DNA from: an uncultured Victivallales bacterium
GTDB lineage: Bacteria; Verrucomicrobiota; Kiritimatiellia; UBA8416
Reading direction: 5' to 3'
DNA length: 64,000 bases
Assembly: GCA_964609395.1 (NCBI GenBank)
Contig: CAZSRU010000001.1
Location: 7,324-71,323, forward strand
Shown in pieces: positions 48,584 to 50,871 of the stretch; positions within the stretch are counted from its first letter, which is position 1; each line of letters opens with the position of its first letter. The notes under the pieces are model-generated. The model had not been told where the DNA came from. It searched no databases and saw nothing but the letters and a program-made list of their open reading frames with translations. The translations under genes and the position numbers were made by a program.

Positions 48584-49057
48584 ATGACAGGTCAAGCTCA
48601 GTCGGTGTCTAAAGAGGTCGAATCGTTTGAAGCCTATACGATCTATGCATTGCGGCAGTCTGCCTCGGCATTGCTTGGCATGATGGATCGAAGCAAGCGC
48701 ATTGCGAGCGCTTGGCCGGATGTGATGGCTCTGGCGCAGTCTGCCGGGTTGTGCAAGGAGGTCGCGGGGCTGGCCTGCTTCCAAAATTCACTGGCGGAAT
48801 CGCTCGGGGATGTCGAGGGGGTTGCTGGCGAACGGTTCGATCTGGCGCGCACGGGGCTGCAGGGCGTGATGGAGTCACTCGAGGATTCGCTGAATTTCAA
48901 TGATCCGGATATTGCACGGTTGCTTTTTAGCACACAGCTTCCTAATGCATTGAACAATTTTGCGTTGGCGATACCACCGTTGGAGGAGTATATCCGCAGA
49001 GTTTATCTTGGCACTGCGGATCCTGGCGAGGTTGCTGCACGTCATGAGGATGCCTGA
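48584..49057 (+). CDS. Hypothetical helical protein translationally coupled (TGATG) to maf; start moved to ATG 48584 (RBS AAGGACGG)
   Basis: 157 aa; no recognised motif; the longer ORF start overlaps the upstream hairpin. Confidence 0.45.
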   Translation: MTGQAQSVSKEVESFEAYTIYALRQSASALLGMMDRSKRIASAWPDVMALAQSAGLCKEVAGLACFQNSLAESLGDVEGVAGERFDLARTGLQGVMESLEDSLNFNDPDIARLLFSTQLPNALNNFALAIPPLEEYIRRVYLGTADPGEVAARHEDA

Positions 49058-50871
49058 TGGAATCTAGTTGGCTAAGCGCATTGAAGGAGGTTGACCCCGG
49101 CACGGCGGGGCAGCTGGCTCCGCATGTGGCCATAGTCCCCCTTGTGGTGGAGGCGGTAGCGGATCAGGATGCGGCATCACTGGCGCAAGCGTGGTTGCGG
49201 TCCCAGGTGCCATGTCCCAATGTGATTATCATTGGCGGCATCTCGCAGATGCACTTGATCGAACCGTTGCTTTTGTTGAAAGACGGCATCAGTCTGATTC
49301 TTCTGGATAAGGATGTTTGTCGTCTGGCGGCTGGGCTGAATGGTATTGATAGCGAGACGATTCGCACGGCGATCCGATCCCGGCATTTGATTGTCGATAC
49401 GGGAGAGAATCAGGGTGCCTCCATTGACAGGTTCCTTGAGGCTGTCGATTTTTCCAGGGTACCGCGAATCCGCCTACTGGATGCCATCCCGATTGCGGAG
49501 CCCGATTACCAGATGATTGAAGAGATGACAAAAGTCTCGCGGGATCTGATTCGTTTGCAAGCCTGTGACTTGGCGACGCGACTGCGTTTTGGCAAAGCCT
49601 GGCAATCCCAGACCGTTCGTAATATCCCGGCCATCGTGCAGCATGCTGGCGTGAAAACCCTTTTTGGTCTCTTCAAGGGAAAACCCGCGCTTGTGGTGGC
49701 GGCAGGCCCCTCGCTGGTCGAGGCGCTCCCGTATATCGCCAGCAATCGCCATCGCCTATTGGTCATCTGTGTAGGACGCGTTTTGGCCTATTTAGTGAAT
49801 CAGGCTGGAATCGTGCCGGATTTGGTGGTGACCGGTGATGGGCAGGAGATCGTCCTAAACCATTTCAAGCACAAGCCGCCTCTGGTTCCCGTGGTGGCAA
49901 GCTGCTTTTCAGATCCAGAGTTGGTGGAAGGCCTTGACCGGCTGTTTTTTATGGAATTGGAGTCGATGCGCCTTCCCAACTGGCTGCGCGGCAAGTTTGG
50001 TGAATTGGGGGAGATTTACGCGGGCGGAAATGTGGCGACCGCTGCGCTGGCGGTGGCGGAGGCGCTGGGATGTACCCCGATCATGACGGCAGGGCTTGAC
50101 TTGAGTTATCCGGAGAGCGGGAAAACGCATGTTACGGGACGAACGTTAAAAGAACTTGCCGCGGATCCTGAACACACGGCACCCAAAATCTACAAGGTGA
50201 GTGGGAATTACCAACCCGAGGTCGAGACCAACCGGCAGATGTTGCATTACATCGATTTCACACGGCAATTTGTGCAGGCCCATCCCGAGACGAAATTTGT
50301 TAATCTAAACACGGCAGGTGCCAGGATCGAGGGGATGCAGTTGGCTCGCCCTGAAGCGATGGCAACGTACCTCGGTGCGCCGCTTAACGCGGCTTGTCGC
50401 ATAGCAAATTGCTATGCTGCCGCTGTGGGCGAGGCCGATAAGGTGGGTAAGTGCCGTGTGGCGCTGGAAGCGGAGATTCCGCAACTACAGTCTCTCTGCA
50501 AGGAGTGTATGGATGCGGCGATGCTGTGTAACCAGCTGATTATGCTAGTCCGGCGACCAGGAAACGTTGCCGATCCGGAGCAGACGTTGCGTGACTATCT
50601 GGAGCAGCTCAAACCGTTGGATCAGCGGATCCGCGTCGATCCGGTGGTGGATCTGATTGAGGCGCGTATCGAGGAGGCCTCGCACCGGCTTTCCGAACGC
50701 ATGATGACTACAGAAGAACGCGCGATGAATCCGGCGGTGCGCAGTCATCTGCGGTGGCGTAACTTCTACACGGCGATTGCCGATGCATGCCAGACCACCG
50801 AGAAACTTTTAAAGGGTGTAATCAATACGTTCGATTCAGTGTCGCATATTACGGCGAAGCAGGGAAATTAA
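49057..50871 (+). CDS. maf: Maf-family (DUF115 / MptE-like) motility-associated flagellin glycosyltransferase
   Basis: 604 aa; DUF115 core motif KPALVVAAGPSL and surrounding Rossmann-like region; neighbours flagellin and fliS. Confidence 0.7.
   Translation: MESSWLSALKEVDPGTAGQLAPHVAIVPLVVEAVADQDAASLAQAWLRSQVPCPNVIIIGGISQMHLIEPLLLLKDGISLILLDKDVCRLAAGLNGIDSETIRTAIRSRHLIVDTGENQGASIDRFLEAVDFSRVPRIRLLDAIPIAEPDYQMIEEMTKVSRDLIRLQACDLATRLRFGKAWQSQTVRNIPAIVQHAGVKTLFGLFKGKPALVVAAGPSLVEALPYIASNRHRLLVICVGRVLAYLVNQAGIVPDLVVTGDGQEIVLNHFKHKPPLVPVVASCFSDPELVEGLDRLFFMELESMRLPNWLRGKFGELGEIYAGGNVATAALAVAEALGCTPIMTAGLDLSYPESGKTHVTGRTLKELAADPEHTAPKIYKVSGNYQPEVETNRQMLHYIDFTRQFVQAHPETKFVNLNTAGARIEGMQLARPEAMATYLGAPLNAACRIANCYAAAVGEADKVGKCRVALEAEIPQLQSLCKECMDAAMLCNQLIMLVRRPGNVADPEQTLRDYLEQLKPLDQRIRVDPVVDLIEARIEEASHRLSERMMTTEERAMNPAVRSHLRWRNFYTAIADACQTTEKLLKGVINTFDSVSHITAKQGN

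Follow-up and report, generated by a model that had tools for sequence, protein, structure and literature searches.

The stretch of DNA analysed here, called the window below, covers 64,000 nucleotides (nt) of an uncultured Victivallales bacterium (contig CAZSRU010000001.1, positions 7,324 to 71,323) and carries, within a flagellar gene cluster, a gene of the Maf family of flagellin glycosyltransferases preceded by a small open reading frame (ORF) that we call X. Our analysis suggests that X is, rather probably, a non-catalytic partner subunit of Maf, a divergent four-helix-bundle adaptor of the type described for GlfM. Since X and GlfM are most likely related, although very divergent, X would extend a known system rather than found a new one. 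The elements in question are the following:

48584-49057, plus strand: ORF X, 157 amino acids (aa), candidate partner of Maf of the GlfM type, predicted to form a soluble four-helix bundle
49055-49059, plus strand: TGATG, the stop/start overlap of X and maf, read in the sequence
49057-50871, plus strand: maf, 604 aa, a Maf-family (DUF115/MAF_flag10) putative flagellin nonulosonic-acid transferase without tetratricopeptide repeats (TPR)

X starts at an ATG at 48584 preceded by AAGGA, runs for 157 codons and stops at a TGA (49055-49057) whose last nucleotide opens the Maf ATG (49057-49059). The preliminary description of this DNA had read the same TGATG overlap at the end of a 157-aa frame, and the independent gene calls of three public assemblies contain identical 157-aa and 604-aa proteins. 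A longer alternative start for X, GTG 48542, falls within a 17-bp hairpin and is not common to the orthologues. Among nine other distinct loci, the X/maf junction is an overlap in six (TGATG five times, ATGA once) and a spacer of 1-12 nt in the remaining three. Judged from the sequence, this arrangement indicates that X and maf are translationally coupled, and the coupling is not fortuitous, since an overlap or a short spacer recurs in these nine loci.

The downstream gene is a bona fide candidate for a Maf-family flagellin glycosyltransferase. Its product matches PF01973 (MptE-like/DUF115) over residues 185-353 (E 5.7e-33; 114.5 bits, well over the cut-off of 34.6) and NF050051 (PseD domain; E 1.4e-12). 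It contains VVAAGPSL at about residues 212-219, and the AGPSL motif, at position 215, is invariant across 39 Mafs and occupies the same place in the orthologues. A profile built from 13 Mafs, this one included, matches 5mu5_A, the Maf of Magnetospirillum magneticum AMB-1, at E 6.2e-23. The AlphaFold2 model obtained from a 39-sequence input (predicted local distance difference test score, pLDDT, 90) begins with an alpha/beta domain, from which a long helix leads to the central Rossmann-like domain, and ends in a helical bundle; 5MU5 is its sole significant Foldseek match in the PDB, over the full length (E 1.4e-16). The two proteins thus have a three-part domain architecture in common, but they are only about 13% identical and superpose with an overall TM-score of about 0.55, reflecting domain orientation. 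The PF01973 match, the 5MU5 profile match, the fold and the pse genes described below all agree with the earlier identification of a DUF115/Maf protein with a GPSL motif and a putative role as flagellin transferase.

All 604 residues of this Maf are covered by the three 5MU5-type domains: it contains neither TPR nor any other added domain, PF01973 being its sole Pfam match at E up to 0.1. The idea that X could be a detached piece of Maf was considered and rejected, Maf being full length with all three domains. Two wider searches for Maf contributed little: a scan of genome contigs with a single Maf protein as query gave no match, and in plasmids tblastn with Maf proteins matched nothing beyond a Paenibacillus replicon lacking annotation and a fragment from Campylobacter.

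X is a genuine gene under purifying selection that evolves with Maf. Wherever Maf orthologues (60-30% identical) were followed, an ORF of 149-161 aa lay between flagellin and maf, its product 51-24% identical to X in alignments. In the other direction, with X as the starting point, a metagenome scan added four loci and a 736-kb contig a fifth, and maf follows X in all of them. X is thus strictly co-localised with maf in both search directions and precedes it in every related locus examined, in agreement with the association proposed in the preliminary description. The ratio of nonsynonymous to synonymous substitution rates (dN/dS, Nei-Gojobori, two close pairs) is 0.085 for X, with dS of 0.6-1.1, and 0.097 and 0.068 for Maf. 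Identities of X and Maf run in parallel from pair to pair (91/90, 84/86, 63/70, 51/59 and 28/32%), and both proteins diverge faster than FliS and flagellin.

The X family is small, as an exhaustive HMMER scan of 1.8 billion representatives, each standing for one 50%-identity cluster, found eight homologous representatives besides low-complexity repeat noise, and a profile search found 21 family proteins. We estimate its size at about 20-30 proteins, all metagenomic; one Maf orthologue from these genomes is labelled 'Verrucomicrobia bacterium'. Sequence searches of Pfam, NCBIfam and the PDB matched X to no entry, and with its orthologues they yielded nothing or only helical compositional noise such as apolipoprotein E. 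A word-index protein search with 48584-49054 returned X alone, whereas homologues 40-50% identical were found in the same database by profile. This result is a failure of sensitivity and not true orphan status, and 'orphan' verdicts from such searches are untrustworthy for short, fast-evolving proteins. One apparent fusion of X to a DUF1285 protein (P0138) was set aside as most likely an assembly chimera, because the switch occurs in mid-helix on a very short (1.8-kb) ENA contig. In the most distant X-maf loci (L008, L009 and L010, about 1150-2380), a family 2 glycosyltransferase (GT2) of ~405 aa is inserted between the divergent flagellin and fliW, which suggests a second glycosylation activity in these genomes.

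X is confidently predicted to be a soluble up-down four-helix bundle. The AlphaFold2 model (mean pLDDT 85; predicted TM-score 0.75) places long helices at residues 15-43, 47-74, 79-105 and 108-141, in line with the helical character noticed earlier for this protein, and the segment of residues 106-124, NDPDIARLLFSTQLPNAL, is helical. FlaG domains have an alpha/beta fold, and flaG is found after the flagellin gene. X occupies a similar position after fliC; its model is all-alpha and no PF03646 match was found.

These properties echo those of GlfM, the glycosylation factor for Maf described in Shewanella oneidensis (Unay, Kint & Viollier, bioRxiv 10.1101/2023.12.03.569772). In this bacterium, Maf-1, which has a C-terminal TPR, glycosylates flagellin unaided, whereas the TPR-less Maf-2 requires GlfM (SO_3260), an 89-aa predicted four-helix bundle encoded beside it, the whole forming a 'tripartite' flagellin O-sialylation system. 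GlfM binds Maf-2 and permits formation of the Maf-2-flagellin complex, and deletion of glfM phenocopies loss of maf-2. Residues F24, R25, D77 and E80 are conserved, D77 of the last helix being essential; HHpred detects merely faint similarity to FliS and FliT. Orthologues are functional in the Kurthia and Pseudomonas systems, and glfM generally lies downstream of maf-2 (10.1101/2023.12.03.569772). A later preprint that cites this work annotates maf2-glfM next to lafA in Vibrio parahaemolyticus.

Similarly, X is a small, soluble, predicted four-helix bundle encoded directly beside a TPR-less Maf in a flagellar cluster with pseudaminic acid genes, its Maf has, as Maf-2, no overt flagellin-binding domain, and its own resemblance to flagellar chaperones is weak, as is that of GlfM. 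S. oneidensis Maf-1 and Caulobacter FlmG carry out the same task, the cytoplasmic O-glycosylation of flagellin with pseudaminic (Pse) or legionaminic acid, and also use a helical module for acceptor recognition. In these two enzymes the module is a TPR inside the protein, whereas in the X-Maf pair it would be a separate four-helix protein.

A second line of comparison came from proteins with a DUF8042-like domain at Maf loci. The precomputed PF26154 (DUF8042) tag is found on a free 199-aa protein at the maf locus of Alicyclobacillus cellulosilyticus (L018 8275-8874) and on several Maf fusions, for instance on the N-termini of P0089 and P0101. The N-terminal extensions of the 750- and 755-aa Mafs of Paenibacillus cellulosilyticus (L019) match the same profile; in these fusions and in both Paenibacillus Mafs the extra 115-135 residues are N-terminal. 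Scanning genomes with a Maf alignment gave 80 Maf loci in named genomes (L020-L099; Proteobacteria, Firmicutes, Spirochaetes and other groups), which we surveyed with a hidden Markov model (HMM) for the DUF8042-like domain, refined until it comprised 48 sequences. Firmicutes and Betaproteobacteria are over-represented in this sample, and Shewanella is absent from it. In 52 of the 80 loci maf has a DUF8042-like ORF as direct neighbour or fusion partner, arranged as follows:

directly 5' of a maf: 42 cases
flanked by a maf on either side: 4 cases
directly 3' of a maf: 5 cases
joined to the N-terminal end of Maf: 4 cases

The upstream or N-terminal placement has the same polarity as X followed by maf. 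Free-standing members measure 89-212 aa (median 112). Their last helix has the consensus 'A.E..DYvLlADlleYEl.P.L' and their helix 1 '...fr...', with F/L/I then R/Q/Y at the pair column, so that size, motif and spacing fit the published description of GlfM (F24, R25, D77 and E80; D-x-x-E). From this fit we infer that the DUF8042-like family is the GlfM family. The preliminary description had presented the partner of Maf as being of an unknown kind; this no longer holds, given the experimental description in 2023 of GlfM as a small four-helix Maf partner and the presence of DUF8042-like proteins next to maf in most loci sampled. The same Alicyclobacillus locus encodes a second Maf, a short one of 429 aa, whose gene overlaps a following ORF for a 149-aa helical protein that matches no family (L018 8910-10645); the pair adjoins pseB/pseC-like genes, and the 149-aa protein may be another kind of Maf partner.

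Comparison of the two families links X to the DUF8042-like proteins, although at the limit of detection. When the X-family HMM was run against 2,053 ORFs, the only matches outside the family with E < 0.01 were four Maf-adjacent DUF8042-like ORFs (E 5.4e-5, 5.8e-4, 7.7e-3 and 7.8e-3). Reciprocally, the DUF8042-like HMM run against 3,488 ORFs ranked the divergent branch of X right after its own members and ahead of every unrelated ORF, with colinear, full-length alignments (P0149, E 6.8e-5; P0136, the L009 orthologue, 2.7e-4; P0152, 6.3e-4). Direct alignment of the X and 48-sequence DUF8042-like profiles by hhalign gave a score of 29.3 over 100 columns (probability 44.6%, P 2.3e-4), to be compared with 16-17 for reversed profiles and at most 14.3 for 100 column shuffles. 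X would thus be a borderline homologue of the DUF8042-like family, with which it also shares the position of a helical domain upstream of or N-terminal to the Maf catalytic domain. The family differs in that window X has no direct match to its HMM, lacks its invariant 'AD..E' motif and has longer helices; moreover, the X proteins constitute a tiny clade of their own, restricted to Verrucomicrobia-like genomes from metagenomes. We consider that X probably works like GlfM and is related to it, and stop short of counting it as an established member of the family.

Several observations weigh against this assignment. The hhalign probability is only 45%, and was 1.2% with an earlier profile of eight sequences; window X itself scores -1.6 bits against the DUF8042-like HMM, the link being transitive, via homologues just 24-29% identical to it. 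An hhalign match of similar size (34 columns, score 24.5), although local, relates X to the FliT-like ORF family. In single-sequence hhalign comparisons of X with the Alicyclobacillus 149-aa and 199-aa Maf neighbours and with the Paenibacillus Maf N-terminus, nothing significant was obtained. The essential D77 position of GlfM corresponds to Leu113 in window X, and E80 to Ser116, with the reservation that the alignment is uncertain at the residue level; in the divergent homologues the D77 position holds Glu (P0149 and P0136) or His (P0152). By hhalign, the F24-R25 column falls near X residues 35-36 (D/E-R), in an unreliable part of the alignment. X is also larger, at 157 aa with helices of 27-34 residues, than GlfM (89 aa) and than the median DUF8042-like protein, and it lies upstream of maf and is translationally coupled to it, whereas glfM generally lies downstream. 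Finally, the likeness of X to GlfM is transitive and borderline in sequence, and the equation of the DUF8042-like family with GlfM rests on the published description only.

Two other roles for X deserve discussion. X might be an export chaperone or regulator of the FliT, FlgN or FliS kind, acting on flagellin or the cap protein and being an operon-mate of maf with no role in glycosylation. It is surrounded by the late flagellar genes fliC, fliS and fliD, it is all-helical as export chaperones are, FliS (1orj) appears weakly among the Foldseek results for its model (rank 44, E 1.6), and the local hhalign match to the FliT-like ORF family has P values of 0.0012-0.0019 over 32-34 columns. The window, however, already contains dedicated FliS, FlgN and FliW and a FliT-like ORF; X and the FliS family align by hhalign no better than noise (score 17.4, 1.1% probability), and six X orthologues had no match to PF02561, PF05400 or PF05130 at E up to 10. 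X is always tied to maf rather than to fliD or fliC, keeps pace with Maf in its divergence and not with the slower FliS and flagellin, and finds its best remote matches in Maf-adjacent proteins, so that we regard a chaperone function as quite improbable. A somewhat better case, still an unlikely one, can be made for X as a Maf subunit with another role, in Maf stability or folding, donor-sugar specificity or gating of activity. Coupling and co-evolution with Maf show partnership, not purpose; the authors who described GlfM themselves consider that it might change the conformation of Maf-2 or bear on donor specificity (10.1101/2023.12.03.569772), and the fact that the window branch of X no longer has an acidic residue of the D77 type suggests a changed interface. 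On the other hand, the sole experimentally characterised partner of this sort, GlfM, enables the Maf-flagellin interaction, and the window Maf, like Maf-2, has no recognisable flagellin-binding module.

That X could lack any function, as an ORF arisen by chance or as what is left of a decayed gene, has next to no probability: its lack of a database family match and the solitary word-index result would fit, but its length, position and sequence are kept in loci whose Maf is just 30% identical, profile and exhaustive searches recover its family, and its dN/dS and confident predicted fold are those of a functional protein. The conservation and selection data rule out a non-functional X. We return to X as a probable GlfM-type partner of Maf. 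The preliminary description had proposed a dedicated accessory protein or chaperone, or a flagellin-binding adaptor; the accessory and adaptor readings match the class of proteins described for GlfM, and the function of X itself is derived by comparison only.

According to the model that we propose, the X-maf transcript would read through the hairpin that follows the flagellin gene or start at an unrecognised promoter, and X and Maf would be produced from one mRNA by coupled translation, favouring matched amounts. X would bind Maf, itself devoid of TPR or other overt flagellin-binding domain, and the X-Maf complex would recognise newly made flagellin in the cytoplasm. Pseudaminic acid or a derivative would then be transferred to flagellin Ser/Thr residues from a donor activated with cytidine monophosphate (CMP-Pse, made by PseF), and FliS-dependent export of flagellin would follow glycosylation. 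The genetic architecture and the folds are those described here; the interactions between X and Maf and with flagellin are what we infer from the case of GlfM.

A more extended version can be envisaged, in which X represents a separate, enlarged adaptor lineage that has lost the acidic residue on which GlfM depends and uses a different interface with Maf or flagellin, and in which a four-helix module is the usual state of Maf. We hold this combination to be possible but doubtful. The upstream or N-terminally fused module is present in about two thirds of the sampled loci. If it proved true, most Mafs would be two-component enzymes with acceptor specificity residing in a fast-evolving helper, and the published 'downstream glfM' arrangement would be a minority case.

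The genetic context of X and maf is a single large flagellar/chemotaxis supercluster that occupies the 64-kb window and includes fliPRflhBAFG, fliA, motAB, fliMLKJ, fliFG, flgFGAHIJNK, rpoN and sigma-54 activators. At the locus itself the order is fliD and a flagellin gene (both on the minus strand), fliW, csrA, a second flagellin gene, the hairpin, X, maf, fliS and a 99-aa ORF, beyond which lie three further conserved ORFs of unknown function and then flgF. The features surrounding X and maf are:

43492-44967, minus strand: fliD
45112-46050, minus strand: second flagellin gene, 312 aa, divergent from fliW-csrA; Flagellin_N and Flagellin_C in the public gene call
46538-47062: fliW
47133-47366: csrA
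47562-48503, plus strand: flagellin gene directly 5' of X, 313 aa; PF00669 E 1.2e-27, PF00700 E 1e-22
48521-48558, plus strand: perfect G+C-rich hairpin of 17 bp with no U tract, between the flagellin stop and X
50885-51325, plus strand: fliS, flagellin export chaperone, next in the run; PF02561 E 4.9e-31
51335-51634, plus strand: 99-aa helical ORF 3' of fliS, FliT-like in position and appearance, conserved in related loci
62307-63182, plus strand: pseF, pseudaminic acid cytidylyltransferase; TIGR03584 290 bits against a cut-off of 205.7, over ORF residues 56-279
63163-64000, plus strand: pseG, running off the window end; TIGR03590 270.4 bits against a cut-off of 153.55

A flagellin gene occupies the slot 5' of X in all related loci, and the flagellin encoded at 47562-48503 is the probable acceptor substrate of Maf. 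The two flagellins of the locus are closely similar and short, are arranged back-to-back around fliW-csrA, and both display the conserved cysteine motifs 'LFCG' and 'FSCGQFAG' in their variable region. At a distance of 30 kb there is a third flagellin-like gene, whose sequence is more divergent (17354-18280, plus strand).

The segment around the hairpin (48501-48590) folds as RNA with -45 kcal/mol (z = -5.3), none of 200 shuffles being as stable. The hairpin was not scored as an intrinsic terminator by a consensus scan, and scanning of the flagellin-X-maf intergenic regions revealed neither a sigma-70-like site nor a canonical terminator. It may act as a partial terminator attenuating read-through into X-maf, or as a 3' stabiliser of the flagellin mRNA.

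The pseF and pseG genes stand directly 3' of rpoN (60893-62443), ~11 kb downstream of maf, and the true start of pseF is probably near 62470. Their presence at the right end of the window makes a pseudaminic acid donor plausible; the pseudaminic acid cluster begins here and presumably extends past the window edge.

Several other genes of the window merit mention. The 99-aa ORF after fliS had been considered as the true GlfM, glfM being reported downstream of maf; it was rejected, with an hhalign probability of 0.1-0.7% and a score of 14.0 against the DUF8042-like family, and it has neither a Pfam nor an NCBIfam match. The four ORFs between fliS and flgF (51335-53082) encode proteins of 99, 116, 278 and 104 aa, the 278-aa one with a lipoprotein-like N-terminus; none has a Pfam or NCBIfam match and all are kept in the related loci L004, L005, L007 and L013. 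On the other side, an AsnB-type glutamine-dependent amidotransferase gene (41562-43568, minus strand; TIGR01536, 413 bits) adjoins fliD and is found as the same neighbour in a related genome (L015 750-2663); its product might amidate the flagellin glycan or a precursor. A 743-aa ORF with no Pfam or NCBIfam match (35754-37985, minus strand) lies embedded in genes for flagellar-regulon response regulators and sigma-54 activators.

The X-maf pair opens no new kind of biology, and the finding that in most cases the helper precedes maf or is joined to the Maf N-terminus is a modest addition to the published picture. Reconstitution of Maf activity has historically been difficult, and the work on GlfM suggests that an absent helper is one reason. 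The locus described here illustrates that such a helper may be so divergent as to escape current Pfam and NCBIfam models and yet stay strictly coupled to maf. To judge from our survey, maf is commonly preceded by a small helper gene or carries an N-terminal fusion, which is useful for annotation and for the choice of study systems. The small adjacent gene is therefore worth including in glyco-engineering with such Mafs, and in the annotation of flagellin glycosylation islands of uncultured phyla.

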